Positions 2,311 through 47,610 of a DNA stretch of 64,000 nucleotides are shown here, piece after piece. The first letter of the stretch is position 1; the number at the start of each line of letters is the position of its first letter. Origin of the DNA: a virus (Duplodnaviria; Heunggongvirae; Uroviricota; Caudoviricetes); the IMG/VR virus record IMGVR_UViG_3300012016_000001, positions 64,001-128,000 of that record; one strand, written 5' to 3'. A program made the translations under genes and the position numbers. The notes under the pieces were generated by a model. The model had not been told where the DNA came from. It saw only the letters and a list, made by a program, of their open reading frames with translations, and made no database searches.

Positions 2311-2354
2311 AAAGGGGAGCTCGGTAGAAATACCGGGTTCCCCTATTTTTTTTT
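2311..2354. terminator. Bidirectional intrinsic terminator between the convergent early and late blocks
   Basis: 13-bp stem GGGGAGCTCGGTA-GAAA-TACCGGGTTCCCC (2314-2343, two G-U pairs), with an A-rich run on the left and a T9 run on the right, lying between stops at 2307 (+) and 2353 (-). Confidence 0.85.
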
Positions 2355-5300
2355 ATTTTTGGGCTTGTAAATACGCACGATATGTATCTTTTCCTCCTCT
2401 TGCAATAGCAAAATTATTTACTATAACACTTAATGCAGTCTTGTCTCCAAAAACAAATCCCATTGTGTCCCTTATTAACTTAGTATTTGTATCGTATATA
2501 GGAGCACTATTATTTTCAAATGCCCATGATATATAATTAATAGGTCCCATTAATGAATCTGGAGATTTTTTAGCAGCTTTATAGAATATTTCAGTAGTTA
2601 AGTTAGCAGCTATAGGATTAGTCTTCATTTCTTTCTTATAGTCTGTATAAGCAGGATCTAATGCTAGTTTAAATAAGAAGAAGAAGAATAATGAACTAAA
2701 TATGTCAGTAAGAAGTTTATCCATATTAGCTTTCTACCTTGGATTAGCCAATACCCAATCTTTTGCTATCTTCCAACCATCTGTAGTTCCTATATCCCAC
2801 ATTTCTTTGACAGTGTACCATATACCTTGTACTATCTCTGGAACTTTTTCAAGTACAGGCATTCCAGTATCTTCTGTTACCATGCTTCCATCATAATTCC
2901 AGAACAGTAGATTACCAGCCTCATCACGGGCTTGTTTGTCTACAAGAACTGTATTCTATCCAAAATAGTTATTATAAATACCATTCATCCAAGTAGTATA
3001 CATACCAAAGAACCACATAATAGTTTCATGTTCAGCCATACCTTTAAGTACCTTATCATAAGCACCATAAATATTATTAGCTAAAGCTTTTATATTTTCT
3101 ATTTCTTTATCAGAATATGGACTTAATAATCCTTTTTCACCATCTGGAGTTATATCTACCATATTTTCTGGATGTTCCATATTCCATTCTCTAGCCATTG
3201 ACATATAAAGAGCTAATGCTTTTTTGTATTCTGCATTTTCTTTTGGAGTTCCATCTACAAGTGCTTTAAATCTTAAGTCTTCTTTCCAATTATATACAAG
3301 TTGGTCATCAACTATCGAGTAACCATCCCACGCTCCGTCTTGCATACAACGTGCAACGAAAAGAGTCATACGATTTAGAAAGTCAGGCCTACGTAGTGTT
3401 GAATATGCCCAGTTTCTATAATTCATAGCACCTGCACGGCCTACTTTTAAAGATTCAGTACTTGCAAGGTCTATATTAGATAGACGATATCTAGACATTA
3501 ACTTACTGAGCATATTAATATTCATGGAATTTGTCATTCCATGAGTTACTACATAAGCATATGCAGCGGATATATTTTTAGCATCTAAGTCAGTATTTAA
3601 TTTAGTAAGTGCTCTCATATAATTCTCTTCAAAACCTTGGAACGTATCCCTAAAGAATGAAACTAAATTACCTCCTAAGTTTATAAGCGTTACCTAACTT
3701 CTTGCTTTAGATAATGCTCCGGTGACTATCTATCCAAATTTATTTTTAATGGTGCTATCATACACATTAACTGTTAAGAAATCCTATATATACTTGATAG
3801 CTTCATCAAAGTCTTTTGAATTCCCAGACTCCCTTCCCATTATATGCATTTGTAGTAATAAGGCCTTAGTACCTACTAGAAAGTTATTAAGTTTTTCTGT
3901 ACGTATACTAGCTGTTAGATAGTCAATTAATAATCCTTCTAGATTAGTTTCAAAGTAATCAACACCTTGTTTATCTATATATTGCTATCTGCTTATACTA
4001 CTAAATTTTCCATCACCAATATCGAAAGGATTTCTAACAGAGAGTTGTTCCCTTTGTTCCATTAGTACTTGCCTTTCCTACTCAGATATTCCTTCTACAA
4101 ATTCATCATACCATAAATCTGGGTCTTTTAGTATTTCAGTTACTCTCTTTAGCCTATTCTTCCAAGTTTCTTTCTATAGATTCTGCTAAGTTCTAGTTCC
4201 AGAAGAAGCTCTTTTTAAAGGTACGTATAAATAATCTCTAAATCTAGGCTTTTTTAAGTCCTATGCTATTTTAGGATCATTATATCCTGTATATCCTTTT
4301 GGATTAGATAATCCATGTCTTATTTTATAAAATTCAAATAGTAGCTTTTTTAGAAATACTCTTTCAGCATCATCTAGTTCTGGGTCTTCATATGGATTTT
4401 TAAAATTCATAGTTTTCTTACCCTAATCATCAAGTTCAAAGAGATGTTCAAATACTGAATTAATATTACCGATAATAGCATTCTAAGTTAGAGTATATCC
4501 CTTTGCTTCTAGGTACTCCATAATAAAACTTCTTAGATTCTAAGAATAATATTGCTCAATCTCTGTAGCCATTGTATTAAAGGTCTATACCAAACCGCTA
4601 GTAACAAGTCGTATATTAGCATTTGAAACATTAGTACTAGTACTCATGTTTCTACTACCTATTCCTAATTTTTCCCCATAAACTAACTTCTCTCCTTTAT
4701 AATAATGGTAAGCATTAGCTACAGCAATATATAGTCTACAAGCTTTTTCTCGATCTCCATTATAGCTACTATTTGCTTTATCAATGATATCTTTTGGAGT
4801 TTTTAGTCCAGACATTAAATGTCCAAGACTTCCTCGTTCAAAAGCCTTTAATAAATCACCAAGAGCTTTAATTTTGGCTGCTCTATCCATAGTATTAGCA
4901 AGTTCAAATACTTTCTAGAAGTTTCCACTTCCGTAATCTTGTATATCTGCTTGTGAAAAATGCTAAGTAGCTAAAGCATATTCTCTCATTATTAAATCTA
5001 TAGGATTAGTAAAGTTAGAACGTCCTAAAGTATTAAAATTATTTGTAAACTTAAATTCAGGATTTTTATCACTTACTACCTATACAATAGTTGGTAAATA
5101 GTTCTATACTACATCAGATACAGAATACTATACCTATGTTCCTAAAGGACTTATTACTTTTATATTTCCTAGTTGATTATTTTGCAAGTCAAGCTTTCCT
5201 AGTATCTAATTGATTAGTAGTGTAGTTCTTAATACTTCAAGACTTCCATAAGTTCCAGGTAACATATTTTGAGCATCTGCATCTCTTTTATACATTCCTA

Positions 5301-6960
5301 GAATAGTATGTGTTCCCTTTTTCAAAGGCATTTGTACATCAGTATTATAACCACTTAGAGTAATAAAGTCTATCTAATTAGTAACATTATTTTGTATAAT
5401 AAGTACATTATAATCAATTAAATCATCCAAAATTTTCCAGTTATAAGTTCTTTTCTTTTTATCGGGGCTTTCGGTATAGTCTTGAAGGTATGGACGTAAT
5501 ATTTCTTCAAGAAATACTCCACTTCCACTTAAGCCTTGTGTTCTAGCCAATAAACGTCCAGCATCAACAAAATAACCCTTATCTCCTGAATCTTTAATTT
5601 TCTTAATAACCTATTTTAAAGTGTTTACTAGATATAAATTATTATCTTCTAATTCAGATATATGTTCTTTAACAACATCTAAAATTTCTTGGTTACTGTT
5701 CTTAGGTTTAGTGCTTTTTATATGATACTAAGTACCATTTAACACAACTTCCCAAGTTTTATCAGGATTTCTTGATATTACTAAAGGTTCTGCTTGTCCA
5801 GAGACAGGAGCGTTTTTTACATATTCGATGGCAGAACGATGTATACCTTCGCTTTTTATATTAATTCCAGGAACAATATATTGTGCTTGTTCTTCAACTA
5901 TATCAAAATCAGAAGTAGATATATTTGGAACTTCTATGTCTGACTTTACAAAGAACTTAGCTTTATTATCATATGGTTCCATGCTATATCCTCCTTTTCC
6001 AGCAGTTATATTTCTAGGGTTACCTATAATTACATTTTCTAACATACTATATGTCTAGTCATATTGTAAAGTTACAGGTACAATATGCATGTCAATTCCT
6101 TTTACAGGTATACCATTCTATCTGAGTATCTACTTTATAAAAGCCATATAATACTTATATTTTTCTATTTTTTCATTAGCCCACATATCATAAGGCTAAG
6201 TTGAAGCTTTAAAATTGTATAAGTGTAGTACTCCAGAACTATCTATTGCAAGATAATCAATATGTCCAAATATATCTTGTCCTAAAGACTCTATTGTTCC
6301 TTTTATACCAAGGTGACTTATAATTTGTGGATCTGTAAATCTATATATATTATTATTAGCAAAAGCTTCCATTTGTCGTTTTATAGATTTTATTAAGTCT
6401 GAACGTCCAGCAAATGCAGTTCCTGATATATGTTTACTTATCCCGTCTTCAAAATCAGCAGTTCTTTTTGAATATATAGCATTTATATTGTCTATTATTT
6501 TATGTAATACTACAGAATCTTCTAATATCCTTTGTCTATTAGCAATTAACTCGTCAACCTTCCGTTCTGCTTCTGCCTATGATAAGTTAGCTTTTTTCTC
6601 ATCCATTAGATTAGCTATTTCCATAGCACGTAATTCTGCAGAATCATAGCGTCTAACTAGAGGTTCTCCATCTACAAAACATCTAGGATCATCGATAAAT
6701 TCCTATGCGGACATTCCCTCAGTAGTACCTAATTCGTCCTCGGATAATGAACTATTAGTAGAAGAAGATAGTTTAATTTCATGTGCAACTTTTTCTCTTA
6801 AATCTTCGAGTTGTCTTGCTATTGTTTCTTGTCTTAGATTTTTTGCAAATACTATATCATCCATATCTGTAAACTCACTAACATCCATTTTATCTATCTC
6901 TGCTAATAACTCTACTATATTGTAGGGCTTCCCATTAAAAGTATATATACATTGTTTCAT
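2353..6960 (-). CDS. Giant virion cargo protein, 1535 aa (TAG=Gln), with an N-terminal PD-(D/E)XK-like domain
   Basis: Track fragments 2353, 2956, 4585, 5728 and 6703 share one frame; all but 2353 end at TAG. Start is MKQCIY at 6960 and the stop is TAA at 2353. Contains 'VLHKIID...GHIDYLAIDSSGVLHLYNFKAS'. Confidence 0.8.
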
Positions 6961-9857
6961 TATTCACAACTTTCTTCTATTTTCTTATCGTTTAACTACT
7001 TTTCTAGCCAATTAGCCTTTTTTCTTTGCATTTGGATTTCACCGTTACCCTTTATAAAGGATGGGTTATTCTTAAGAGTTAATGCTACGTCCCTATTAAA
7101 TCTATTCCAAAAACCTAGCATTGTAGAATCTGAATATTCCTTGAGAGGCTTATCAGCATCCTTCATATCAAATATATTGTTTTCATTTTCTTTTAGTTCT
7201 TTAGAATCTTCAAACAAAGTATTTAAATCGTACGGTAAATGTTTATTCATATGCTGTCCATACATATCTGCAAATACTTCTTCTGCAAGATCGTAGTAAG
7301 AACGATTTGGATATAATTTCCTTTTACGTTCTATAGCATTAGCTGCATATTCTGTATTTAAAGCTCTCTATAGTAAGGCTATATAAGCTTCTCTAGTAGC
7401 TGGATTAGCTTTAAGTACTCCAAGTATTAAATGAGCATATTCATGGAATGGATCTTGTACGTCAGCAGTAGAACTATTTATATATATTTCTCCGTTATGA
7501 ATAAATGCTTTTACTGTAGAATCTAATTCAAGTCCATTTAAATTCATAGCTAATTGAAGCATTTCTTCTTCGGCTTCAGTTCTCCCTTCTATAGCCTATA
7601 ATTTAGCTATTGTTTCTGGATTTGTAGCCTCTATAATATCATCATTAGATATTACATGTACTGGAACTCCAAATTTATTTTGCAAAGTAGTAGAAAGAGT
7701 TTCCAAAAATTTTATGATTGGAACTCTAGGAGAAGTTTTTGCTTCCTAGGGAGTAGTTTTATCAGTTTCTATAAAGTAATAACGTCTTTGACCTTCATTC
7801 TTAGTTTGTACAGATGACTTTATATAATAATATTTTACTGGAGCTTTCTTTATATCTGTTACTATAGCTCTAAATACATCTCCATTTTCTCTATTATATT
7901 GTATTCTTCCATCTTCTCCAACAAAATTCATTCTTTGGTTCACTTCACTTAGAAATATGGCAGCTTTTTCTGCAGTATCTATATTATTTATAATGTACTC
8001 TTTTACGTCAGCTCCGACATTTAAACCATTTATATAATCATAAAAATCCCACAGAGTTTTTTCTAGTAATATGGATTCATTATTTAACATATTATCAGTA
8101 CTAACAACCATATCTATAGAGGTTATTATGCTTTTAGCTGGAATAAATCCATCACTTAAAAATGTACTACCCTCCCTTGTAGTGAGCTTTCCATTCTTTT
8201 TCCTTACCTTTAAATCAAATAAGCCGTAATTTTTTAATATTTCTCTACTAGATTTAATAGCAATAGCTTCTTTTGCTTCTTCTAAGGTATGATAAGATGT
8301 ACCATCTGAATAAGGAGTTAATATACCCTTAGTAAAGAAAAATGCCTAAACTCCATTTATTGCTCCTGAATATATTGTATATCCATTTTGTGTTTCTATT
8401 TCACTAAACTAACTAATAGTGTCATATCCAAGTCCGTATACACTTTTTATTGTTGGATATGCACTTTCTAGTTTTAATATATTTCCCTTTATTTTTTTCG
8501 CTTTGTATCTAATAGGATTAGTGGTTGGACCTAAAAGACTTTGTAACCAATTAATAAAAGATTCGCCTAACCATTGTTCTTCGTCCTAATCGATATCCTC
8601 ATTCAGTCTATTTACAAAAGATTTTTCTAATTCTGAGAGTTTGCTAAATTTTTCATCAGTTATAGCTGCTTTTATAGCCTCTTTTACTTCAGAGCCCTCT
8701 TTGTTTATAAATTCTATAAACTTTTCTGGAGAGTTAATATCCAATAGCTTTAATACTTCTGGTATATCAGACTTAAGTACTTTAGAATAATACTATTTTA
8801 AATTTACTTCTGCAGAGTTAAATCCGTAAGTGAATCTTTTTACAAATTCATTTACTAACGGGTGGTCATAACCTTTTAACTTATGCTCTCCATTTAAAAC
8901 TAAATATATATCTTTAACAAATGTTTTTTCTTCATCAGACAGTCTACTAAATTCACTAGTAGCTATTAAATCTTTGAATCTTTCTTTTATGTATTCCTTA
9001 TTTTTAGCTCTAAATTCATTGAATTTATCTATAGTATCTATTCTAAGTAGTTTTGATACACTAGGTAGTTTCTACTAAAATGTATTACTGTAATAATCAT
9101 CTACTTTAATATCACTAGAATTTAAACTATCCATAAATGTAGTCAGTAATGGATCTCCTTGTAATTTAGGTATACTATTTAAAACGTTAGCTACATCTTC
9201 TAATACAAGGAATACACTACGTTTACCAGGCTCTTTCTTAATATCCTTATATTTCTTTTTATTATTTAAGTAATCACTTACTAAATCCCTTTTAGTTGGA
9301 AGATCTTTACTTTTAAGCTTTTCAAAAACTTCATCTAATTCATTAACTAAGTCTTCATTAAGAGAATCTATAAAATTCTCTGATAATCTTTCTCTTGTTG
9401 TTAAATATTTTCCTAACTTAATTACAGAATTCTTATCACCCTTGATTACAAATATTTCATTTCCTTTTGTATCGATTACTCTACCTTGAACTCCATTTTT
9501 AGTACTTCTATCTAAATTATCTAGAAGCAAGATAGGAACATCTACATCAGGAAATTCTATATCTGGATACATTGCTTTTATATAGGCAGTATTAACATTA
9601 GGGATTAAATCTTTAGCTTCTTGTATGTCATTATAAGTAACATCTTTAATAACTGCACTAGTAGAGCTCATGTAATTAATAAGATTATCTACAAATGTTT
9701 TCCATTCAGGACTGTTTTTTAATATCTTATTTAGATTTTGTTGAAGATTATCTACGAGAAAGTTTCCTTTCCCGTAGATTTCTTCATCACTAAGGTTAGA
9801 TATAGTTATACCTTCACCTTCTTTAGTTCCATAATTTATCTGAATAGTACAAGTCAT
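6960..9857 (-). CDS. Virion cargo protein with zincin metallopeptidase-like domain, 965 aa (TAG=Gln)
   Basis: Fragments 6996, 7368, 7746 and 9075 are in frame. HEYAH at 7431-7445 and EEVFAD at 7266-7283. The TAA at 6960-6962 overlaps the next ATG (TAATG). Confidence 0.8.
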
Positions 9858-12800
9858 ACACAGTTTATTTTGAATTGAATAGTACTCGTTCTCATTAGTT
9901 CACTAAGTACAGCTGCTGGATTATTAGCGTTTAATAACATCTTTATTTGAGCTAAGTATGTAGAATAAGGATTTCCAAGCAAGAAATAACCTCTCTAAGC
10001 TGCAAACCTACCTAATCTGTCTAAGTTAGTTTCTCCGGAAACAGTTGGTAACATGGATGGAATTTCAACATACTTATATCCTTTACGCATATAATATCTA
10101 GGAACTCCATCTTTTATCATAATTACTACTGGAGCAGTCTATCCTTCTAAACTGCTAACAGTCTTTGCTTGAGCTAAAAATAAGTCTCTAGCAGTAAAGT
10201 TGAATAATTCATCAACATCTTCTCCTTTGTGGTCCATTTCTCCTATATACTTTAAATATCTATTTATTAAGCTATTTCCTTTTCTATCAAACTCATTTAT
10301 AAAGTTCTCAAATGCCTTAGTTAGTCTATCAGAACCATATCTATTGTTATTTACAACTAAATTGTATAAAGCAAACCAATCAGCTAGGTTATGACTTCCA
10401 AATTCAATATTACTTAACTATCCTAATGCTTTAGAATACTTAGCTAACTGAATAGTAGTATACGCTGAATCTGCGCTCATATTAATATTAGTTTTCCATA
10501 TAGGTACATCTCCATCCATATCCCTAGTTAAAGATTGTATAAATTCATTATTCCTTAATTGAACATTAATAGCACTATCTTGGAATAGATTACCGTTCTA
10601 CAATCCAGGAATTACTACATTTTCAAAATAGTATTTAAAACTAGCTATAGATTCTTCAGAATTTATATTTAAAGTGCCACTATTAGTCTACCTAACTAAC
10701 TATCTATTACTATTAAACAACCTAGCTCCTTTATTTATAGGAAGTTTAAAACTCTCTTTTTCGGTTATAAATTTAGTAATAATAAGTTTAGAAGCAAACT
10801 TTAGTATACTTGAATAAAGATCTGTATCAATATATGTATTTGGATTTTCACTTCTTATCTTTCTTATAGCACTTTGTAAAATTCTACTCTTTGTAGAGAA
10901 AGCATTTACAGTACATTCACTTCCAAGAAGCCTGAACATATTACTAAAGTGTGGTATATAGTCAGCTGCTGCAAATATATTTACACTATGCTTTATATAA
11001 TTATAATATTCACTAGTAAGTCTTCTATAACTATATTCTTCTCCTAGAACAGGATTTCCTTTATCATCAGTTATTATTTTTCCAGTTTCATCTACTTTAG
11101 GTAATCTAACTGTAGCATCTTGTAACCATTTAACTGGATCAAAATTACCATTAGCTACTAACATGTACTTCTCTACATTCTTAGAACCTACCTTATTTAC
11201 AAAGGCATCTAGATTGAATGTTCCATCTTGGCTAACTAATTTAACTGCTTTTTCCCTTTGTTCTATATTGCTTCTAAAACGTTGTAAAGCACTCTCCAAG
11301 TCTTCTGTTTTACCAAGTAATCCTTGGTTAATACTCAACATTTTACCAAAGTTACTAAATTCATTAGCCCCTTCAAATACTTTTTCGAACTCGTTAACAT
11401 CTGCAAGCATATTATTAATCTATGCAAGAGACATATTATCTGGAAGAGCCTATCCAATTATAGTTTCTTTATTTGGAGCTAGATCCTTATCTTGTTGTAC
11501 TATAGATTCTCTTAAGTTAGTTAAATAATTCTTTAGATCTCCAATTACTTTTGCGGGTTTAGTATCATTACCAGTAAACATATTAGGATTAGATAATCTA
11601 TCTATTAAATCTACAGCATCACTTGTCATAAATGCTACTATATCATTAATATCAAATCCTAAAGACATTAAATAAAGATAACATTTAGCTAATTTACTTC
11701 CAGCATTAATCTTAGCTAGAATAAGCTCTTTAGCATTATCAGTTGCAGCAGAAATCATCTAACTATTAATGTTGTCAGTTTTAATATTAGGATTTAGCTT
11801 ATTTTTTATTAGGCTATTTATAAAGGTTTCTACTGCTGTTTCTCTTTCTTTTCTCTTCTCTGGAGTATCAGTTTCGTCAAATATAGCTTTTATACCTTCT
11901 ATATTTATATCTGGAAGCATTCTTATCGATGTATCTACAGGTTTGAAATCATCTGAGCTTCTACCAATAATACGCTTAGTATTAAATTCAAACCTTGCAA
12001 ATTCTAAATCAGAATGTGGTGTTACTATTAACTCTCCATTTTCCACAGTATAATCAACCCCTTCTCTAGCTTTTTTGATTACATCATTTACATAAAAGTT
12101 CCACATAAACATAGCCTTTTGTCCAGTAGCTGCAATAGCAATAACACTTTTACCTGTCATATTTTGATATTGCATTTTATAAACTGCTAATGGATTAAGT
12201 AATGTAATTCCTAGTGCTTCTTTACCTTTAGGGCTATTATCGGATGCGTCTCTTAAATCTTCCATTTCTACGGGAATGTAAGAATCAGCTGCGTTTCTAA
12301 CGTGTTGGATAGTATTCTAAATATGGGAAGATACAAAGTTACGTAGAGCCATAGGTCTAACTCCAACTGGAATCTATACACTGTGATGTCTGTTTAAAAC
12401 TTCTCTTACATTTTCTATGTAATTGTCTTTACAGTATATCTTAGTATTATCACCTAATTTATTAAGGATGTCCGCGTAAAGATTTATTTTATGTACTCTA
12501 TCATTAATTTCTTGTTGTTCATTCTCATACTTATGTATTTTTAGCCTATCTTCTATTTCATGCAACTATTGAACCTATGCAGTAATATCTAGTCCTTCTT
12601 TTGGATCTGAAGTTCTTGTAATAACTACATCAGGATTAGGCATAGATAAGTACTCAGAAGCTTTAATAGTTTCAATACTAGTATAATCAAATAGACTACT
12701 CCATCCTATATATGAACCATTGTCATCAAATGCAAGCCCCATTATATAAGCTTTATCAATATCATAGTCAGAACCTTGTAACCAAGTCTACCAGTGAGAA

Positions 12801-15800
12801 ACATATGCCTAGTTACTTCCTTCCCCAGAAAAGCCTACAAGCGTCATATTCATAAATGACTGTAACGTTTGAGCTGGAATACGAGAAGCAGTGAATCCTG
12901 TAGAGCGCATAAAAGATGCTTTTCTCTTTTTACTGAGTTTATTTATATACTCCTTAGTATAAGATTCATTTAAGTCTTTAAGTCCTCCCTTTTTAAATAC
13001 AAGAGCGTCTCCTTGCTAAACCATCTTGAAGTTATCAGAAATCTTAATTTTTCCTCCAGATGCTTCAGGTATTTGATATATAATACCATCATATAGATTA
13101 GTTAAATAACTACTTAACTCAGGATCATACAAGAACTCATCTGCCATTTTTGACATGACGTTCTTTAGTCTTCTAGTTCTAGAAACACTGACTCTATCAT
13201 TATTAATTGTCATTAGTTCATATGAGTCAGCCTAATATATATCACGTATAATTTTTCTAGTAAGATTAGTAATACCTTTATCTATATCAGCTGCTTTTTG
13301 TTGCTCAGTTTCTTTAAAACTTTGCATAGCTCTCTACATTTCTTGGGTGTTTATATTAAAGACTGCATGTCTAATATGTTTACCCTTAGAATCTTGAGTT
13401 ACTCTATGTTTAGTTACAAATTCAATATACTCAATTACTTCTCCAGAAGGATTAACTGAGAATCTACCTTCTATTACTTTGTCTCCCTATTTATATACTT
13501 TATTTACAGAATCATAAGTTAAGTCTTTTCTAACAATATCCCTACCTACTTGGAATAATTTCCTTCCATCATCATCCATTGCAAAAACATCATTAACTAC
13601 AATGTCATTGGCTCTTCTATGATTAGTTTCTCTATGAAGCTTACCCCAGGATGAAATTTTATATTCTGTTCCTTCTATAGAACTACTAGATAAGTCCCTA
13701 TCTATAGATATATAAGTATGTCTTCCATTACCTTTCATCATTATTAAGTCATAGAAGTCCTAATTAATAGCGCTAGAACGAACTTGTCTATCTTTAGAAG
13801 CAAAGAAAGACTTAGACATATTTAGTACTTCTGCTAAAGACATATGTTGGTTAATTCCAAACTTTGTCTGATATATATTAGACATAATAAGTTCAGCAGG
13901 CGTATTATGTAATACTATATCATAGGTCTTTTCTCCAACTGTCCACTTTCCTTTATCTAGTTGGTCAAGTAACTACTATGTCTTAGGATTCTTGTTATTT
14001 TTAAAGGCTTCTATACATTCGTCTGTATCAAATATATTTGTTACTCTCTGACGTCCTTGTTCATCTGTCCATTCCCACCAAATCTTTGTTGGAGCTAGAT
14101 TACGTGCAATATGTAGATTCTTTCTAAAACCTGTTATAGTAACAGGAATGCCTAGTTTTTTCTATACATATGCTCTTGGATCAGCTTTAAAGTTATAATA
14201 GTCTTTTATTTCGTTTAAAGTAACATCTAACCAATGTTCTTTACCTTCAGCATCCTTATATCTAATTCCTATATTATCAGTAGGCATAAATGTTTCTAGA
14301 TAATATTTAAAATCAGGTAATTTGCCAGGTTCATTAGGAATACTATAATAATATTTATCCTTATTATAATCATCAGTAACTTTCTAAAGAAAAGCTTTTA
14401 CTATTTTGGAATTAAAGATATGAGCGTCAAATCTATTAGTAGAATCTAAATATAACTACTCAAAGTATTGATGATATGGATGTGCTAATACTTCTTCTAC
14501 TGCCTCTTTCTTTTCTTCTTCATCTTCAGCTTCTTCTGCAACTGATTGTAGATAAGCATACTCTTTATATGCTTCAAGAGCCTCTCTCTTTATATCATCA
14601 TACTAATAAGTTCTGCCACCTATTTCGTATATTGTTGCAACTTCATATCCTGGAGATATAACAGCTCCTAATCCTGGATATTTTTTACGTATTGATTTTT
14701 TTGTTATAACTGAAGCATAAGTAGACAAAATACTACTATAGATATTATCATCACTGAATGGAATTTTAAATAAATCCATATCATGCGTACTAGTTAGATT
14801 AAATTTAGCTTTAATTTGACCTAAAATAGCCTCAGCTAGTCCAGACTTACCACTACCCATTTTTATGTTGTCAAGAATAGTCTTTCCTACAATATCATAT
14901 AAGGCATCTCTAGCCTAAATTTTAGCTTGAGCAATATGCTATTTAATTGTTTCTATTTCAGATACTAAATTAGAAGTATTAAGATCAGGATATTCCTTTT
15001 TAGGAAACTCATCTTCGAAAGCTTTAATAAGACTTTTCTAGTCATAATCTAATACTCTTTCTAATAGTGCAGTTACTTTTGTTTCTTTGTCTAGTCCTAT
15101 ATTTTTCTTAAACTATTCAATAAAAGGAGCTTCCTCAATAAGAGTTCCTGCTTTCTAATAGGCTTTAATAGCATCCATTTCGATCTTAGCCTCTGCAAGA
15201 GCGATTTGACCGAGAGCTTTATAAATACTTCCCACATAATCATGTACACGTCCTCCGGCATCTAGTGCTGATATAACCTAAGAGAATTCAGTCATTTCAG
15301 CTTCATCAGCTTCATGGTCAGCATCCATTTGAATACCATAATAACGTGTATCCATAGTTATATAGTCTAAATTTTCATCATTATAATATCTCTATGATGA
15401 ATTTCTATTACCAGCCCCATTTTTAATGGCACTATTATTACATAGATAGTCTATCATTAAATATTTAAGAGGTTGTACGTAGTTATCCTAGTTAAGTGCT
15501 GCATATTTAGTGAGACCTGCCTTTCTAATAGTTACATTATTTATAATGTTAGCTACTACATAGTTAGATGCTTCAGAAGCTCTTAATTCTTTTTTAGACT
15601 GTCCTGTAGAATCAACGACTTCTGTAATAGATTCACTATCTATGCCTCCAAACATTTCATGTAATTCATAAATACTATTTACTGTATGTAAGCCTCTGTC
15701 CAATTCCTCAAAAGCACTTAGTATATGGTCTTCTCTATAATGATTACCCTACATGTCAAAGTAATGATAAACCTTTTGCTATATATCTGGAGCTTCTCCG

Positions 15801-18800
15801 CTTTCAGTAACTATTCCCTCTATAGTATAATATGCAGACCTAGGTCTAATATTACTTTTTTCCTATACAGTTTCAAAACCAGCATCAGTAATAGCATAAT
15901 GGTTTCCTTCTGCTCCCATATAATAAAGCATTGTATTTCCATCAGTAATAGTACTAAATTTTATAGCTTTATCACTAGTATGCCCAGCTAAAGCGAATAT
16001 GTTTCCATCGAATTTAGTATACCCTTGTTTAACTGGTCTGCCATCACTCATTAATATTGGTTTCTTATTTATATCAGTTACGATTTCTCCAGTCTAGTCA
16101 TATAAAGCATCACTAATGACTTTTGACCAACTTTGGTTTGTCATTTTCATGAACATTTTACGCATAGATACAGGAGAACCTTCAGACTGTCTCATTAGAG
16201 TATTGGTCATAGTATGCGCTGCAAACTTAACAAGAGAAGCAGTCATATGTTCACCATCATAGTAATGCCATATAGGTTTCTTAATTGTACCTACTTCATT
16301 TTCTTGTAGTGACCAGTTTTCTAAAATAGATGTAATAGGATTTATCCAAGCTGAGCCATCATGTGCATCTATTCCATCTGATTTTCCAGTAAAATTAAAC
16401 ACTGCTGCTTTTATATCATCCATTACAGCTACTTTCATATGTGTACCTATACCCCTTATAGTACCCTGCATATAGTAACGCATAGTTGCAGGTATAATTA
16501 CATTACGTTTTAACTGTGCTCCTTGCCCAGCTGCCTCTACATAATAAAGTTGCTATTGTCTTACTTCTTCAAGTTCTTTAGCATACTTAGGTATTCTACT
16601 TATTAATTCTTCTAAATCACTGAATGACATACTCTCAAAGAAATAATCAGGATTTATTCCTCTTTCTTGAGCCATTTGTTTAGCTACTGGAATAATTTCG
16701 GTATTAACAGCTAAATCGTTATTTATTCTTTTTCTTATTTCTTTACCAAGGTTAGTTCCAATAAGTTGTTTATTCTTGTGATTTATTTCAGAACCAGTAA
16801 GTAGCATTCTCATACTATTATTTAGATAACTATTTACTAAGAAATACCTTTCTAAAAGAGGATTAAGCTACATATCTGGCTTTATATCCTGTACTTTTGT
16901 TATAGCATTACCTTCAGAGTCTTTAGCTAAAATTATATTTCCATCACTAGTTGCCCATCTTCCAGAGTAAGTAATTTTACTAAAAGCCATACCAGTAGGA
17001 GTATCGTCTTTTATTTTTCCATAAGAATCTATCTTCACTTTTTCAAATTTAAAACCTGTTTTTATTAAGTCAGTTAAGAACTTAACTTTTTCAGTCATTA
17101 GGCGTTTTCTAAACTCTTTTGGTGTGTATAATTCTAGTGCGTAATGTGCAAGAGACTCATTAAAAGCTAAAAAATTATGCTTTTTACCATTAGAATCTTT
17201 AGGCGAATTTGGTCTAAAGTGAGTATCTAAGTAGATGTCTACTTTAGCTGCTTTAGCTAAATTTATAAGTACTTTTTCTGCATCTTTACCTTCAGATATT
17301 GCTTTTTCAGAAAGTTGACGTAGTTTTTTGTCTACCTATTTTACTAACTATTTTATATTGTCTTTATTATATGTAATTAACTTTGTACTTGAATCAACTA
17401 CATAAGCTTGATCATATAAAGGCTATAAGTCAGTAAATATTTTAGCATAGTCACCTAATACATTTTTTAGTATAGCTCCATAAGCATATCCCATTTCATG
17501 TGCATACTTAGATTCTATATCAGATAATTCTGCTTGCATTAAGTCAAGTCCATTTATTTTAGTTTTAATTCTATAATTAATGAACTTTGTCTTATCAGAA
17601 TATGTAGTAGGTTGTATTATTATATAAGGACTATCTTCGATTAAAGGAAGAATGAACTTGTCCATTATAGCATGATAATAAAGTTCTCCTTCTTCCATAT
17701 TCTTTACCTATTTAGTAGCACCATTAGGTAATCTGACCTCGGTATCAATTACAGTACCAATAACTGCTGTTGGGTCTTCTGCAAATATATTATTATTTAA
17801 AGGTTGTCCAGCAGTAATATAAGGAGCATGCTGTGCGTCTTGTAATAACGTCTATAAGTTAGAGCCCATAAATGCTAATCCATAGTTAGGTAGACTATCT
17901 CCTAGTTGATTCTTGGTATTAGCAGTAGATATTTCTCCTGACATTATGTGTTTTATATCTATATAATTCTATAACCAATTTTGCCCACTAGTTAAAGTAA
18001 CTAGGGTATTACCTAATTCAGAAAGCTTCCATATTTCTTTCCATGAGTAATCACTTTGAGAAATGTCAGAAATTTTAAATACTGGATATAGATTTTTATC
18101 AGCTATAAATCTAGCTAAATCTGTTCTGTTATATATTGTACCTGGATTCTCTAATTCTTTTTCAAATTTTTTATGAATGTCATTTACAACTAATCCTCTA
18201 GTAGCAGTAGCTAAAGCATTAGCTACACCTGTAGGATATTTAGATTTAAATAAGAAATACTCTAGTAGGCCGTTTTCATCTAAAGTAAAATGTGTTCCTG
18301 CTAAGTCATCAATAAAACGAAGTACATTCATAAAATCTGCATTAGTACCCTCTTGGTTATCAATTATAGCTTTACGTCTTTTATATGTAGAAACATCATG
18401 TTTATTAAGAAAAGAACCGAGACTAAGAAATTGAGATTCGTCTTTACCCTTGACCTCTATTGTAATATTCTTATCTTCTGAAGCTTTACTTAATAAGCCA
18501 TACTTATTACTAGCTAAAGACTCCATTCCATTTACTCTAGTCTGAACTGTAACTCTTACAGTAGTTCCATTAATATCTATAGTATAAACAGATTGAGCTT
18601 CGTCTACGTTAGAAGTAAATGTATACGGAAAATCTGAGTCAGTACTAATATTATTTCTATTTACAGAGTTTAAATGATTAAATAATTCTCTCTTACTAGA
18701 GTACTTTCTTTTAATTCTAGTAACTAATTCACCATTATCCACTGTAGTTTCAAGATAATTCATGCTAGTAGAAGATAATACTTGGGCAGATAAACTATCT

Positions 18801-20221
18801 ACTAAAGAATATCTATTAGTTATACCATGTTTTCTATTGTAACTCTATTCTATTTTATATAGTGAATTAGGACGTGCAAATACAAAGTCATATACTGCAT
18901 CTAGTACCTAAAAATCAAAATCATTTATTCCAAACTTAGAAAGCTATCCATATAATCCAGTTTTTACATTATCTGTATTACCTTCTTTTAGATGTTGTTT
19001 GTAAGCATCATGAATATTATGTAATATTGTTTTTAGACTTTCTGTAGGATTATTTGAGTAACCAACAAGTAACTTATACATATTACTAGTAGTTGGAAAT
19101 CCAGATACTACATCAAATAATGATGTGAAAGTATTTAAGAAATTAACAGGAGTTAATTTAGTATCCTTAATAGGAATTAATTGTATTAAGAACTTAGAAA
19201 AATTTCCCATTTCTCTTATAGCATCACGTACATCTACTTCCCATCCTTGTACTCTATTTTCAGTATCCTTTCCGAAATGATATTTATAAGATACTTCACC
19301 ATCTTCATCTATTTCAATAATATTTTTCTATTTACTAGAACTTACGTAATCTCCTATAGAATCTTTTATTAAATCATCAAAGTAAACTAAAGTAAGATAG
19401 GCATTCATAGCTTCGAAGAATGAAGGAATCTCTCCCATTTTGTATTCTGGATTAAGGCTTTGACTCATCCAATCTTCTTCTATATCACCTTGTAATGTTC
19501 CTACTCTTCTCTTATACTCTATAACTTGATACATTTTATCCAGGGTAGACTGATATTTCTTTACCAGTTCATTTCCTGTATACGCGTATCCAGCTAAGTC
19601 TGAGACACCTAGAGCTTTTAAATATTTAAGAATAATTCTAAACTTATCTTTCTATAAGTTTTTTATATGTTCATTTAAACTTTCAACAGTATCTACTATT
19701 TGGTTTTCTTCAGCCTCAGTATCTATGACAGTTCTTAAAGCAATTTCATCCCTAATTTGGTCTCTAAAGAATTTTTCTGCCTATCTATTATTAAGGAAAA
19801 AAGTACTTAAGGCACGTCCTAGTTTCATTCTATGACGTTCCTAAGCATTTTCAGTAACTCCAATAAGTGCTTCTAAAGGTTCTTCAGATTCCCTTTGTAT
19901 TCCAAGTTTTGGAAAAAATTCTATTTCTAGACCTTTTCTTAATAATTCTGATTGATGTCCACCAAGAGTTAGGTCAAATCCTTTGGTTTCCATTTCTGTG
20001 GATCCTAATTCGGTTAATACTTTTTCTATAAATTTTACCATAGAATCCTTAAAACTATCAGGTTGTAAAGACGTATTTTCACTTAAGCTAAAGCTAGTAA
20101 AATCATCTTTAAATCTATCTATTAAAATATTAAGCAAGTCATCCACAGACTTAGCTTCCTTCACACTTGAAGGAAGCACTATTTGGTCTGTGTCTTTTAT
20201 ATTAGGTTTCTTACAACTCAT
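9854..20221 (-). CDS. Virion-packaged single-polypeptide double-psi beta-barrel RNA polymerase, crAss/phi14:2 gp66-like, 3455 aa (TAG=Gln)
   Basis: Seventeen track fragments from 10700 to 19841 share one frame. The catalytic motif GSDYDIDK is at 12752-12775, preceded by 'ASRIPAQ'. Start MSCKK at 20221; stop TGA at 9854 overlapping the next ATG. Confidence 0.88.
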
Positions 20222-20223
20222 AA

Positions 20224-23200
20224 TTAACTTTTTAATGTACAAGAAGTTTTATAAGCCTCTATAATTCTAGATAACAAATCTTTTGCATCTTCATCTGTAT
20301 CTGGATAATTTTTAACTAAGTTATTTAAAGCTTTATCAAAACTTTCAGTTCCAATTACTAAGGACACTTTATTATTGTTTATTGCCCATTTCTTTAAATA
20401 ACCTTCCTTAATTTCTCTAGCTAATGCTTGTGCAGCTTCACTATAATCTTCATTATCTTTATAATTATCAAGAAGTCTCTCTATATCTTTAATTATTGCA
20501 TTAGGTTTAACAATCACTTTTTTGTTCTTCTCTTCAACTTTAGGTTGTGGATTTATTAAGGAATCAGCAGTAATAGTACCATTTACATATCGTAACTCCC
20601 ATTTCTTTGATCCATCACTTACTATTAATGATTTTCCGTCTCTAATTATTTCATTAACAGCCTTTAATTCTGGATAAGAGTCTGTTAAGTATGTAACTTT
20701 AACAGTATTTCCATCATACTGTAATCCTGTGATTACTTTAGATAAATCTATAGACTTAGTAGGCTGTGTTTCAATAATTTTTTGTTCATGTGGACGAATC
20801 ATCTAAGTTTCAATTTCTTCAATATCCTTCTAAACATCTCCAAATTCAAAGTTTTCAGCATTATCTATAATACCTAAAGTTTGTAATGTTCCAAGAGTTT
20901 CTTTTAGAGGACTTTCTGGTTTTAAGTTACCAGGCTTAATTGGCTCTACTACAGGAGCCTCATCCACTGGTTCAAAATTCCATTCTAAGATAGGTCCACC
21001 AGGTAGAGCATCACTCAAGAATAAGGCTGAGTTAGTTGCACTATATGCAAATAATTCACCATAGTTTTTATTTCTAATTATTATTGGGTCAGAGAACATA
21101 CCCTATTTATAGATTGCATCCTCTGAAGTTTCCTATTTATAATTGAAATCATTATAATGTTCTGAAGACTAGGCTACTATTCCATGAAATATAAGATTAA
21201 ATAAGTTATCTAAACGCTAGTCAATATAACCTATTTCTCCATCATCTGTTCTAGAGTGCTCAAAACTTATATAACCAGGTAATCCAGTAATATCAGGGTC
21301 ATTATTCCTTAATAATCCTTTTTTACCTTTATATTCAAAAGCTTCATCAAGTTCAGTATAATCTATATCGTGTTTAGCCTACCCTTCTAAAGCATATCCA
21401 ATATGGAATGTTGGGTTTTCCTAATCATTATATTGATTTAAGAACTGCTGTTTACCAAGAGCTGCTTTTCTATATAGATTGTGTGCTATATTCATTAAGG
21501 CTATTGGGAAAGCATCAACAAGAGCTTGAGGTCCAAATGTTACATCTATAACACGGTTATCAACTCCAAGAGAAACTTTACCTCGTCCAGATAAGTCATT
21601 TGCCCAGCCTTTTACTTCATTATAGTCTATTTGGGAGTCTATATCTAACTTTTTGGCATCTGGGAAGAACTCATAGACTACTTTATCAAATAAATTGGTT
21701 ATGAAATTAGTATATTGTTCAGCTAATTCAGGGTTAAGATATATTCCATTTGGATTTACTTTATCATAGAATGGATTATCTGTTCTAATATTAGTTAGTT
21801 TCCTAATATAAGCTCCACTTTTTGTACTATATCCTATTCTGAACTAACGTACCTTTGTAGCTAAAGAGTCATTAAATTCTCTGATTTTAATAACTTGATC
21901 TACTAAAGGCATAGCAGTATTCTTTCTAAGCCAATTATTATAAGCATCTTCGTCTACATACTGAGAACCTAATTCCTATTTAGCAGTTTCATAATACTAT
22001 TCATCTGCTTTAGCGTAGTTTATTAAATCTTCTTTTGTCCAGTTATTAGCTTCTAATAATTTCTATACTTCGTCATTAAATGCTGTAAGGTTTGCTCTGA
22101 AGTTCCATAAAGAGGCAAACATTCTTATAGCATTATGTCTTAATCGTACAGGTAAACTAAAGTCATTTTCTTTTCCTGCCTTTCTATATGCCTATTTATA
22201 TATCTCTTGAAAAGTTCTTCTATATAAAGAGTTAAAAGATACTCCAGCATTATGTAATACAAACATTCTTACTTGGGGTTTATTATTCTTCCTATCTCTC
22301 TATTGATTTTGCCAAGTTGTATATAAATCTTCTGGTCTTATATTAGGATTAGCTGATGCAAATACTACAGGTTTTCCCTTAAGATTTTTACTAAGAGTTG
22401 GATTAAGTCCTTCTAGTGCTCCTGTAACTATAAATACAGGGCTAACTGACATATTAGCGGTTCTATCTTCCCATTCATTATATCCTCCATCTAGTGCCCC
22501 TAAACGTATCTCATTTCTTATCAGACCTCTAGCATTTGCTTGAGAATTTGGAATCTATAGTAATTGAGTCTTACCAGTAAATTTAGGTCTTTTAATTTTA
22601 ATTTCACCTTGATTAACTAAATTTTGCAGTTTAATTCTATAGTCCTCAATTTCTGCTCTTTTAGCTGTTAGTTCATCGTTAGTAAGACCTTCTTCGTTTT
22701 TATTAACATATTCAAGCCATTTATCTGGATTTGCTATAGCTCCTAATGTTATAGTAACTGGATCACCCTTAGATTTAATTCTTGCCTATATAGATAGAAC
22801 TTTCTTCTTACCATCTGGACCTTCTATAAATGAAGTCTACTTATCATCTGCTGTAGTACGTCCAACTAGACTATGAGTATTAGGATCATAATCTTCCGCC
22901 ACTGCATAGAATTCAACATTTTCTGGAGTAAAATCTTTTTTATTAAATAAATCCCTTACTCTATGTGGAAGAATATTATATGTATCCTCCATGTCCATGT
23001 CAAACGTAAATATGGCACGTAAAGCAGATAAAGCTCTAACAAGTTCTCGTCTCTCGGCTCTATTAGAGGCTGCAACAGTTCCTCTACCTCCAAATATACC
23101 TATATCTCTACGTTCTCCTGTTAATATCCATTTACCTTTGTCCCCTATTGTAGCTCCCCCTAAGAATTGTATATTACTATACGCTCTATAACTTACAGGA

Positions 23201-26200
23201 GCTCCAGTAGGAGTGGGTTCTGGTTCAGGTTCAGTAGTAGTAATTACTTCATTATTAACTGGTTCTATATCTTCAGGTAGGAATACTAAAGCAGGATCTT
23301 CTTCATAGAAACTTTCTGGTATTGGAACTTCATCTAATGAAGGTTCCCCAGTCTCTTCAGTTTTCGGTTCTTCAGTTTTCGGTTCTTCAGTTTTCGGTTC
23401 CTCAGTCTTTTTAGGTTCAACTTTCTTCTCTTCAGGTTTAGGCAGTTTTTTGTATTTTCCAAGAATTGCTTCAATATCCTATTTTCTTGATTCAGTAAAT
23501 GCTTTTTTAGCTTCATCGCTCAAATTTACAGACTAAGTAGTATATTCTTCTTGTTTATTACCTATTCCATATTTACCTTGAATTCCTTTACTAATTTGTC
23601 CCCTATCTATAATAATACTGCCATTACGACTACGTGTAATCATAGTATATATGTCCTATAGATAAGGCATTATGTGTCCTCCCTTTAAAACAGAATCGTC
23701 CTCAGTAATTTGGTCAAAATCTTTGTCCACTATTACATAGTCAAATTCTTGACCTTGAACATTAAGTGGGTCTATATGCTTAATTTTTTTAAGAACTGAA
23801 CGTAATTTAGTAAATGTAGCACTATTTACATCACCAACAAATGCTATAGGTACAGCCTATGGATTCTACTATAGAGATGTTGCTTCTAACATTTGTAACC
23901 TAGTTAGATCTTCATCGGATAAATCAGAAACAAATTTATCTCCATTTAACGTAGTTTCATTTTCATAGAAACTTAGGCTAAGTCCCTTCAGTTTTTCCAT
24001 TACTTCTTTAACTACAGCAGCTCCATTCTATTCATTAGAAGCCCTTAATTTGTCCATTAAAGTAGTAAGTAATTTCTAGTTGTATGTTTTCCATACATTT
24101 CCAGAACGTAAAGATATGTTAAGTCTTGGAGTTCTATAAGCTAATACTACCTCCCTTTGAATATTCTATAATGGAGAATTTAGTTTTATTTCCTTATTGA
24201 AGCCTTTCTAGTTCTCATCTCCCAGCAATGTAATTTTAGCACCAGTTAATTTGGCATACTGTCCTAATGCCTATAAAGTCAATGTATCTATATGTGTAGC
24301 CTCATCAATTACTATATGCTTAGGAGCATTAGTCGTTATAAAGTAAGAAGATAAATCATTAAGTACAAAAGTCTTAGATTTATCTAGACCTGTTCCTATT
24401 TTATAGTCAGTTTGTACTTTACCTTTATTATTTCCAAGTATAGTCTATAATATCTAATCAACAGTCATTCCTTCAGCTGAAGGTGCAACTCCCTTTAGTC
24501 CATTTACTTGATCTTCTGTTGGACCAGATATCCAAGTTTTTTCTTTTGGATTAATAGCAAACTTAGCTTCTACTTGTGACTTACCTGCCCCTCCTAGTCC
24601 AGTATATATTCTAGTATTATATAGTATAGGAAGCTATAATCCTTTAGCTGTAGCTATATTCTTTAGTTTATCAAGAGTCTCATTTATTATTTCAGGATGT
24701 GTATCTAACGCCATCCCTAATAACATTCCAGGCTATTGTGTAGCAATAGGAGCTATAGCAGAATTATTATTTATAAAGTCTAATTCTTTATTTAAATAGT
24801 CTATTGGGTCTACAGCCATTAAAGAAGCAAAGTACATTAACTAATCATACTTTGTGAATGATGCTCCAGTTAAGTCCTGGTCTATTTTTGATGTCATTCC
24901 AGATAATAAAGCATCATCATCTCCTATAGCTTTTATTAAAGAATCTAATATCTAAGAAGTTGTAACTCCTTTAGCAAGTAATTTTTGTACATTATTATGA
25001 AAAAGATTTTCAAGTACAAAACTAGATTCAAGGTCATCTCTGTCAGTTACTCTTTCAAATCCTTCTGATAATTCATCTAAATATGGAATGTCTACAGCAT
25101 TTGGAACTACAACATTTTTAAGAATATCGACTCTTGCAGCATTAAGTCCTTCTAATGTTTTCCATAGAGCTTCAACCTTATTATCAGAATTCATTTTACC
25201 TACTTCCATCCACTAATTGATTTCTTTTTCATATTGTTCTAAAGATAACATTAATGAACTTCCAGTCTAATTATCTAATGTATACAAGTCTTCAAAATTC
25301 TTAAATGCTTCTTCTCCAGCTTTACTATGGTCATGTACAAACTAATTTATAGTTTTATTATAAGCGTACCTTTCATTATCGGCTAAATTAGCCTCCATAT
25401 AAGTTGAAGCTACTATAGCTTTAGTAAATTTTATTAACTATAATGAATCTTTTAAATACTTCTTTTGTTCATCAGACAATTCAAAGTCATTAGGATTTTC
25501 TTGGTTAACCCATATTTTATGAATAGTTTCAAGTCCTTTTTGTATATCAACTTGTTCTCCACCTAGAGCTGCAGCTACTACACTTATAATTTTCTATGCA
25601 GGACCTTCTAATTCAATCTTAGACTCTAAGTCTTCAATAAGTCTTAAATCTTCATTAGTAGTTAATTCGTTTATTATTTTTTCAACCTGAGATTCTCTAT
25701 GAGTATACTCTAAGTCCTTTTCTTCTTGTTTCTTTCTCTCTACATAGTCCTCTCTCCAATCAGTAAACTGTAAGTCTTTTGCCAAGTCATTTAATAAATC
25801 TTTTTTACGTGTTTCATCAGATTCTATATAGTCTTGGCTAGCTTCTAATTCCTATCTTCTTTGTACGTATGTGTTATAAGCATTAATGAGGTCTAGTTCT
25901 GGTAAATCTTCAGTTGTTATTGCAGTTCCTAATTCTTCTGGAGTTTGATCTTCACTAGTTTCTTCGTTATGTATTTTAGTGGTATTATAAAGTTCTGTTA
26001 TTTTTTCTTTAATGTCCTGTCCATTTAATTGTTCATAAATAGCAGCCATATCTATTTTATCACCTAATAAGGGACGTAATACATCAAATAAATAGTAGAG
26101 ATCTTCTAGTTCAGCAAAATAAAAGTTTTCTCCTTCTCCTAATATATCTCTTGCTTTTTCTGACCATTTATCCTCAACTATTTTATCAACACTAGCTCTT

Positions 26201-29200: not shown

Positions 29201-29373
29201 CTTCCACTACTATCTGCAAATAATGGATTTTCTCTAATAAATTTACTCTTAGTATACTAATCTTGAGTTAGCATTTGAGTATTTTCTAGATTTAGTCCTG
29301 CAATATTTCTAAATTCTGCAGGACTGAAATCTGGATTATTTATACTAGCAACTATATAATCGTTCTGTTTCAT
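20224..29373 (-). CDS. Giant virion cargo protein, 3049 aa (TAG=Gln), with hydrophobic N-terminal segments and a central SF1 helicase domain
   Basis: Fragments 20224 to 28228 are in one frame; start MKQNDYIVASINNPDF at 29373. Walker A GLGGAGKS 24577-24600, IDEA about 24298-24309, LLGDENQ about 24208-24228, VQGQEFD about 23740-23760 and YTMITRS about 23630-23650. Confidence 0.82.
23356..23400. repeat. 3 x 15-bp exact tandem repeat encoding an (EPKTE)3 linker
   Basis: TTCAGTTTTCGGTTC occurs three times in a Pro/Glu-rich linker just C-terminal to the helicase domain. Confidence 0.9.
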
Positions 29374-46100: not shown

Positions 46101-46592
46101 ATTTTCTATCTGTATCTTATCTCCTGTATGCAGTATATGTATATCCTAACCATCTCCATTCTATCCTAAATAAGCCCTACATTCAGTTCTAGTAATATCT
46201 TCAGAAGCTGCAGAACTGTAAAATTCCTGTCCTAAATTTATGCTCTAAGCAACTAAAGTAAAGGTATCGACATTAACTGACCACATTTCTGCCATATGAG
46301 CCTACTATGGAGAAGGAAAAGAACCTATCTATCCATGCCCAGTACTTGGGTTATATGATGCTACATATATTATTCCTCCATACTCAGTTATTCCTATAGG
46401 TATGTATCCTTCTGGAAGAGCTGCACTGCCTATAGTAGTATTTCCCATATCATTCTACAAAATCATTTCATTACCGTTATAGGTAATTAAAGTTCCATTA
46501 AGACAGTCTGTTAGTATATCTGCAGGAGTAGTAAGTGGATGAGTATCTGTAACCATCCCTTTTGTAAAAGTATTTACTGTTTCTTTGTGCAT
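43122..46592 (-). CDS. Tail protein, muzzle/stabilisation-like N-terminus, 1156 aa (TAG=Gln)
   Basis: Starts MHKETVNTFTKGMVTDTHPL...LTDCLNGTLITYNGNEMILQNDMGN...GGIIYVASYNP. Fragments 43122 to 45345 are in frame; true TGA at 43122. Confidence 0.65.
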
Positions 46593-47164: not shown

Positions 47165-47610
47165 TAGCAGTACCTTTTTCCATTATTCGTATTCTCAGTT
47201 ATCTTATTTTTTAGATTCTTGTCCACATAAATGGGCTTTCTTCTTCTAATTCCACTTTCCTTACTATACATATCAAGTACTAACTAGTTTCCTGTAAAAT
47301 TTGACTATAAGAAGTCTACATCTTGCCACTTTCCATTCTTCCTAGCTTTTATAAAGTCCTCTCCTTCATAGTTATTAACATGAATTTCTGCTCTCTTACT
47401 ACCTGTAGGAAGCTAGAAAGTAACATTATTGTCTATTATATCATTAAGGATTAGTTGAAGCGCATCTTTAAAGACACGCTTCACTAATCTATCTTTATGA
47501 TAATCTCCATTAACTATATTACAGTCGTCACAAGTTACAAGCAATTTGTCATACGGAAAGTTTTCAAATATTTCGTCCGTATTAAAGGCATAGCCTGTAG
47601 CGTAGTTCAT
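47164..47610 (-). CDS. Conserved crAss-like protein, probably IHF/HU-like, 148 aa (TAG=Gln)
   Basis: MNYATGYAFNTDEIF...NNVTF(TAG=Q)LPTG...KPIYVDKNLKNKITENTNNGKRYC*. TAA at 47164 overlaps the next ATG. Confidence 0.62.

Follow-up and report, generated by a model that had tools for sequence, protein, structure and literature searches.

The closest described counterparts of the genes considered here are the virion cargo proteins of two cultured crAss-like phages. In phi14:2, gp67, gp66 and gp65 (GenBank gp078, gp077 and gp076) are annotated in the GenBank record as structural proteins by tandem mass spectrometry (MS/MS) proteomics, and gp66 is the virion RNA polymerase (RNAP) (Drobysheva et al., bioRxiv 10.1101/2020.03.07.982082). 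The same study described phages in which the three occur as one fused polyprotein, for which it proposed cleavage, and it does not mention cysteines or disulfides. In PhiCrAss001 (crAss001), gp47, gp50 and gp49 were detected in virions by mass spectrometry (MS), with an estimated six or so copies of each, and according to the authors they are probably unfolded in part so that the tail can extrude them (Bayfield et al. 2023, PMC10172136). There the ejection order was attributed to packing and interactions, and the word "cysteine" is absent from the main text. Only for these two phages have proteins of the cargo module been shown in virions by MS. Here we analyse a stretch of 64,000 nt (the window: bases 64001-128000 of the 194,529-bp virus record IMGVR_UViG_3300012016_000001, rated complete by CheckV) in which four separately translated giant cargo proteins carry a cysteine (Cys) at both sides of each of their three junctions. 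The comparative evidence strongly supports the view that these Cys are selected and that they pair the C-terminus of each protein with the N-terminus of the next. In a literature search that covered Crassvirales, cargo, cysteine, disulfide and ejection proteins, we found no account of crass cargo proteins with paired terminal Cys.

Translated with table 11 the region is fragmented into short open reading frames (ORFs); with TAG read as Gln it becomes a minus-strand row of giant genes, four of which are here called chain proteins.

31301-35503, minus strand: cargo-like protein of 1400 aa, no Cys; upstream cargo, outside the chain.
29370-31304, minus strand: cargo-like protein of 644 aa, one Cys (residue 451), none terminal; outside the chain, and together with the preceding protein spanning 29370-35503.
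20224-29373, minus strand: chain protein A, 3049 aa, TAG read as Gln; AAA_30 helicase-like domain at residues 1588-1739 (24157-24612).
20213-20241, minus strand: junction 1 (A to RNAP); ...SCTLKS, stop TAA, 2-nt gap, start ATG, MSC.
9854-20221, minus strand: chain protein B, putative virion RNAP, 3455 aa, ATG start; DYDID (DxDxD) at residue 2485 (12755-12769).
9849-9862, minus strand: junction 2 (RNAP to zincin); the stop of ...NCV overlaps the next start (ATGA), then MTC.
6960-9857, minus strand: chain protein Z, 965 aa, zincin-like; HEYAH at residue 805 (7431-7445).
6949-6968, minus strand: junction 3 (zincin to C); the stop of ...SCE overlaps the next start (TAATG), then MKQC.
2353-6960, minus strand: chain protein C, 1535 aa, the last of the chain; Cys4 at 6949-6951, then the invariant Tyr6.

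The window contains the elements of a crAss-like virion RNAP cargo module, namely a DxDxD giant protein, an adjoining HExxH giant protein and a position after tail and structural genes. As in phi14:2, the adjoining giant proteins include a DxDxD RNAP and a zincin-motif protein and have Cys at their junctions. The window differs from phi14:2 in having four chain proteins (about 9000 aa) instead of three and in its module order, with the zincin after the RNAP, and there is no BLAST-level similarity outside the catalytic motifs. The window RNAP gave weak collinear BLASTP matches to crAss001 gp50 (E = 0.002 and 0.007 in a single comparison), which covered the catalytic DFDVD of gp50 and an "AA(S/T)xDN" block. 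It had no Pfam match and no PHROGs match, and these two databases assigned families to none of three among the four chain proteins. Proteins A and C, which correspond to crAss001 gp47 and gp49 by position only, showed no significant BLASTP similarity to them. Like the window, crAss001 has cargo Cys at termini, and other parts of its virion are disulfide-bonded; unlike the window, it has three cargo proteins, with gp47 convergent to gp50 and gp49.

At every internal terminus of the chain a Cys lies close to the end. Protein A ends ...YKTSCTLKS, where its single Cys, Cys3045 (20239-20241), is the fifth residue from the C-terminus, and its N-terminus has none. The RNAP starts MSCKK (Cys3 at 20213-20215) and ends ...KINCV (Cys3454 at 9860-9862), the other five of its seven Cys being internal. 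Exactly two Cys are present in the 965-aa protein, Cys3 (9849-9851, MTCTI) and Cys964 (6966-6968, ...EESCE). The 1535-aa protein starts MKQCIY and has four Cys, the one nearest to its Cys-free C-terminus being Cys1205. Overall, the four proteins contain 14 Cys in 9004 residues; six of them are found no more than five residues from an internal terminus, one at each of the six, and the two outer termini (MKQNDYIV... and ...AYLQAQK) have none. The Cys frequency in the six cargo proteins was 0.14% (0.08% when the six terminal Cys are subtracted), versus 1.19% in 17 other window ORFs. The probability of finding Cys at all six internal termini by chance was about 1.2e-13 given the Cys count of each protein, and about 2e-8 under a generous null that used the genome-typical 1.19% of the other window ORFs. 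Among 23 other ORFs in the window, Cys occurred within the first seven residues in 0/23 and within the last seven in 2/23.

A first-pass annotation of the window had described these termini, and all of its coordinates and Cys positions at the three junctions were exact when we retranslated the genes with TAG as Gln. It was also correct that the outer termini, and the termini of the 644- and 1400-aa proteins, are free of Cys. Where it had called Cys scarce in these proteins, the pattern proved stronger than described, with one Cys in 3049 aa, two in 965 aa (positions 3 and 964) and none in 1400 aa. Its judgement that the arrangement looks selected is borne out by the probabilities given above and by conservation across Crassvirales and in Flavobacterium phage Fpv1.

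IMG/VR was scanned with an alignment of the last protein, yielding 58 loci, 47 of them distinct, which were translated with table 11, with TAG as Gln or with TGA as Trp. A true junction was defined as a stop and next start within -80 to +40 nt (n = 104). In 103 of the 104 junctions, a Cys no more than four residues from the upstream C-terminus was paired with a Cys among residues 3-6 of the protein downstream. The sole unpaired junction (L113) was a start miscall; its sibling L114 begins MDKGC. Across the 47 loci, 0-3 residues followed the C-terminal Cys and 2-5 preceded the N-terminal one, and the codons at the junctions were TGT (140) and TGC (18). The flanking context was I, L or V at Cys-4 and, at Cys+2, +4 and +6, Y or I, then F, L or I, then I or V. 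This alternation of hydrophobic residues suggests a strand pairing that would pre-position the thiols. Junction 1, from protein A to the RNAP, conformed in four further genomes. For these loci, the comparison of orthologous termini proposed in the first-pass annotation gave pairs at internal junctions (103/104) and outer termini without Cys.

The two protein families on either side of junction 3 were examined at greater depth. A related-locus search with the 965-aa protein alone returned no matches, and tblastn against phage records matched only MT835470 and MT835492. Nine word-index homologues of the 965-aa protein (26-87% identity) all had an MxC start and a Cys 2-3 residues from the end (9/9). 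An exhaustive HMMER search of 50%-identity cluster representatives, combined with these nine, gave a zincin family of 128 full-length members, mostly from clusters below 50% identity. Cys was present within the last six residues in 128/128, within the first six in 121/128 and within the first eight in 126/128 (range, positions 3-8); the two members without it appeared to be start miscalls. In an alignment of 129 zincin sequences, most of them 20-30% identical to the window protein, the sole invariant columns were H805, E806, H809, Y825, E859, E860 and C964, and C3 was conserved in more than 90%. In the family of the last protein (66 full-length homologues) an N-terminal Cys was found in 66/66, with C4 and Y6 invariant, and a Cys within 12 residues of the C-terminus in 0/66, the nearest lying 72 residues from the end.

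The same rule was followed in PhiCrAss001, DAC15, IAS virus, phi14:2, p-crAssphage, crAss002, three Suoliviridae and Fpv1. The phi14:2 proteins have four Cys in 5398 aa, all of them at the two junctions. A lone Cys is found in each of gp47 (at -3) and gp49 (at position 5) of crAss001, and gp50 carries Cys5 together with one at -9; both terminal Cys were present in 120/120 of the gp50 homologues retrieved. The number of residues that follow the C-terminal Cys reaches 8 in crAss001 gp50 and about 10 in its homologues. On this comparative evidence the terminal-Cys pattern is confirmed to generalise to the whole crAss-like assemblage.

Since the three window junctions are overlapping or nearly so, with a TGT a few nucleotides to either side of each stop/start, the codons might be read as a nucleotide-level signal, for instance for translational coupling, or as chance. 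In crAss001, however, gp47 lies on the strand opposite gp50 and gp49 in a convergent arrangement, which places the partner termini kilobases apart, and DAC15 and IAS virus have the same convergent layout with the same Cys, C-terminal in protein A and N-terminal in the RNAP. With partner termini that lie apart in the DNA of these three phages, the Cys cannot be explained by a nucleotide-level motif, and a DNA-level cause is refuted. TGC codons are used as well, the spacing from Cys to terminus varies on both sides, and the pattern is missing from the window's other overlapping gene pairs. With chance probabilities of 1e-13 to 2e-8, we give neither a nucleotide signal nor coincidence any real credence.

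Gene splits and fusions provided a further contrast: Cys pairs mark the places where genes are split and do not occur at fusions or in interrupted genes. Two genes of MT835492 encode the homologue of the 3049-aa protein, with ...FEACKVIA / MQSNC... at the junction so created. The L105 group has its zincin in two parts, a 333-aa protein with Cys at 6 and 332 only and a 549-aa protein with Cys at 3 and 548 only. Chains of five proteins were confirmed as well. Locus L115 (TGA as Trp) encodes an RNAP of 2882 aa, a 282-aa protein and a last protein of 1519 aa (4683 aa in total) with five Cys, all terminal. Among fusions, Fpv1 gp33 (4401 aa) combines DYDID RNAP and HExxH zincin motifs in one polypeptide whose single Cys, at -2, faces the MAC start of gp34. 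In each of the three Suoliviridae one fused protein of about 4300-4800 aa has Cys at its end, and the last protein, which comes next, has Cys at its start. In p-crAssphage, gp44, an RNAP fused to the next subunit, has an N-terminal Cys only (MSCGN), which faces ...SFSCM of gp45. The annotated start of crAss002 gp33 (MVLDYS...; L058, 13088-13190) lies 32 codons upstream of an in-frame MSC (residues 33-35). Both the terminal-Cys rule and the start of p-crAssphage gp44 make this downstream Met the probable true start.

Interruptions within RNAP genes behaved differently from true junctions. The surveyed loci contained 31 ORF interruptions with gaps above 40 nt within RNAP genes, and a Cys pair was found in 0/31. 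They fell mostly at conserved ...SHWQTWLQGSDY / MGLAFDDNG... (catalytic motif) and ...LSAATD sites. The gaps measure 0.3-1.4 kb, and some hold small ORFs (loci L064 to L121, for example L064 4362-4717, L086 3309-4708 and L091 3310-3688; also L001 25484-26545); the window's own RNAP gene is uninterrupted. The interruptions are probably introns (group I) or homing-endonuclease genes, insertions that are frequent in Zeta phages (Yutin et al. 2021, PMC7886860). As such breaks are presumably healed at the RNA level and need no Cys pair, they serve as an internal negative control. The terminal-Cys rule is also useful in annotation, where it separates true termini from intron breaks and from miscalled starts such as those of crAss002 gp33 and L113.

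The modules that meet at a junction also vary. An HExxH motif lies 160-220 residues upstream of the C-terminal junction Cys in window protein Z (7431-7445), crAss001 gp47 (residue 2157, L003), p-crAssphage gp45 (residue 1743, L056) and Fpv1 gp33 (residue 4179, L059). The protein that follows this zincin module is the last protein in the window and in Fpv1, and the RNAP in crAss001 and p-crAssphage. In cr50_1 a helicase domain is placed near the C-terminus of a fused 4774-aa protein; we therefore rejected one fixed A-B-Z-C order for the whole order, and judging by such motif positions module order is shuffled between lineages. Since the Cys rule is kept whichever modules meet, the Cys would have a generic linking role rather than a catalytic one.

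Taken together, the sequence comparisons make a functional head-to-tail pairing of the cargo proteins very likely, and we think it rather probable that the link is a redox-cleavable disulfide that stands in for a polyprotein. Each of the four window proteins would be a separately translated segment of giant proteins that are fused, and fewer in number, in other phages. Once translated, each segment would dock by its C-terminal tail on the N-terminal tail of the next, both tails resembling short amphipathic beta-strands, and the two Cys, each within five residues of a chain end, would form an intermolecular disulfide. The predicted product, A-RNAP-zincin-C, is an unbranched linear chain of about 9000 residues that runs N to C throughout and contains the proteins in a 1:1:1:1 ratio. 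Packaged as one unit, it could pass the narrow tail in the manner of a single polypeptide, and the reducing host cytoplasm would then cut it into its parts. A head-to-tail disulfide placed at the ends would make a nearly linear joint, as a thread in a narrow tail channel would need, and the near-absence of other Cys would prevent branches or loops from jamming the channel. In crAss001 the constrictions of the tail channel are below 50 A, and intersubunit disulfides are present in purified virions (Bayfield 2023, PMC10172136). The first-pass annotation had proposed that C- and N-terminal Cys link the four proteins into one chain. The pairing stands as selected, given 103/104 junctions, the contrast of splits with fusions and the convergent partners; we infer that the bond is a disulfide instead of a metal site, that the chain passes the tail as a thread and that reduction releases it.

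Several analogous systems help to place this proposal. The ejected proteins of podoviruses (N4 gp50-gp52; T7 gp14, gp15 and gp16; P22 gp7, gp16 and gp20) are likened to the window cargo in being large, stored in the capsid and extruded via the tail before or with the DNA, and their order of ejection is attributed to packing and non-covalent contacts. N4 differs from the window in lacking terminal Cys, so that no covalent chain is possible. Its ejected proteins, the virion RNAP gp50 (3500 aa), gp51 (644 aa) and gp52 (150 aa), contain 0 Cys in 4294 aa (L126, NC_008720, 34523-47523). Cys avoidance may be common in proteins that are densely stored in a capsid and pass a channel unfolded; as the N4 proteins avoid Cys too, the terminal Cys of crAss-like cargo appear to be a deliberate exception. 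In AB-type toxins an interchain disulfide tethers two polypeptides during unfolded translocation, and reduction in the target cytosol frees the active part. This would be the closest mechanism in principle, by analogy. The toxin chains, however, arise by nicking of one polypeptide inside a disulfide loop, whereas the phage proteins are separately translated and would be joined end to end in series.

Some observations weigh against a disulfide-linked chain. No thioredoxin or glutaredoxin was detected in the 194.5-kb genome, and an Erv1/Alr-type oxidase gave no match there either, although the latter search is uninformative as it was also blank in all control genomes. The host cytoplasm is reducing and the gut anaerobic, which speaks against ready oxidation of the thiols. 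Counting Cys is formally compatible with homodimers through like termini or with ring closure of the middle proteins. Finally, gp47, gp49 and gp50 are unresolved in the crAss001 study, which reports no such link (Bayfield et al., PMC10172136).

In an anaerobic setting no oxidant would be needed if the paired Cys bridged a metal ion (e.g. Zn, Cu(I) or Fe), which would give the same head-to-tail chain by the same pairing logic, held by a metal clasp. A nearly invariant E962 two residues before the zincin's C-terminal Cys, in a position where acidic residues are common, could be taken to favour such a site. Each partner contributes a single Cys, however, and a two-ligand site is weak for Zn; moreover, no His, Asp or second Cys is conserved across the junction types (...KINCV, ...SCTLKS, ...LRCNS, ...NTIC, ...SFSCM), and we regard a metal clasp as unlikely. 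Thiol chemistry of another topology, whether homodimers of like termini, ring closure or attachment to another virion component, is raised by the fact that counting does not fix the topology and by the several copies of each protein per crAss001 virion (Bayfield 2023, PMC10172136). p-crAssphage gp47 and gp48 and crAss002 gp30 also have a C-terminal Cys with no N-terminal partner in the next gene. Yet a C-terminal Cys on one protein strictly accompanies an N-terminal Cys on the next (103/104, both at splits and neither at fusions), and the outer termini never carry Cys. Ring closure is impossible in the two-protein systems of Fpv1, Suoliviridae and p-crAssphage, which have exactly one Cys of each kind, and these other topologies are improbable on our assessment.

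It is similarly doubtful that no interchain covalent bond is formed at all. The beta-strand-like context on both sides would suit Cys that serve as packing residues in a non-covalent docking motif, but the Cys, in proteins where this residue is otherwise avoided, are invariant and never replaced by Ser, Ala or Val, which points to thiol chemistry. The HExxH motif found 160-220 residues before the C-terminal Cys in four of the phages above would suit a "cysteine switch" on the catalytic zinc of the zincin, like that of matrix metalloproteinases (MMPs). Pairs also occur, however, at junctions without a nearby zincin module, such as A to RNAP in the window, and one Cys per zincin domain would suffice, which leaves the partner N-terminal Cys unexplained. 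We also considered and rejected split inteins with trans-splicing. The Cys lie 0-8 residues from C-termini (up to about 10 in crAss001 gp50 homologues) and at positions 3-6 from N-termini (3-8 in the wider zincin family), which leaves no room for intein halves (about 100 aa N, about 35 aa C), and no Pfam match to Hint or intein domains was found. A Rad50-type zinc hook, which uses a CxxC per partner and four thiolates, was rejected as each terminus has a single Cys.

Lone C-terminal Cys were observed on upstream cargo-like proteins, in the sequences ...KQSCR, ...YRCGGHRR and ...FRCGGKKKIA, from p-crAssphage gp48 and gp47 (L056, 673-4161) and crAss002 gp30 (L058, 2393-4066). The RCGG in the second and third of these C-termini is reminiscent of the MMP cysteine-switch sequence.

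Podovirus-like phages have to move several megadaltons of protein through a narrow tail with the correct order and ratio. A covalent head-to-tail chain, if true, would offer a simple physical means of doing so in the phage order that is most abundant in the human gut. The free fusing and splitting of giant cargo genes would be explained too, and early phage transcription would be expected to depend on host thiol reductases. Our broadest proposal, which we hold to be about evenly balanced between true and false, is that in Crassvirales and related Bacteroidota phages the injected transcription machinery is a covalent, redox-cleavable head-to-tail thread of 5000-9000 residues, a polyprotein assembled post-translationally from the products of separate genes, threaded N-to-C through the tail and undone by host reducing systems, with the Cys pairs as a general device that lets genes split and fuse freely. 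The proposal is testable in the cultured phages PhiCrAss001, DAC15 and phi14:2, in part on existing MS data.

The cargo block lies downstream of ORFs on the same strand that match the PHROGs families major head, virion structural and tail fibre. The "Zeta" crAss-like group (Yutin et al. 2021, PMC7886860) would suit the genome length of 194.5 kb, the TAG recoding and the lack of near relatives among known phages. In-frame TAG (Gln) occurs throughout the minus-strand structural and cargo genes (2353-63952), and four plus-strand ORFs at the window start (156-2307) are without it, which fits a recoding limited to late genes.

Two small proteins of the structural block (46574-47610, minus strand) also have a C-terminal Cys, one of 148 aa (...KRYC) and one of 196 aa (...VLCTKKQ). 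The protein that follows them has no partner Cys at its N-terminus, and a relation to the tail-ring disulfides of crAss001 is possible. Residues 1416-1434 of the 1535-aa protein (2353-6960), LLTDIFSSLFFFFLFKLAL, form the sole strongly hydrophobic 19-residue segment in the four chain proteins, and this segment near the C-terminus could be a candidate for membrane insertion.

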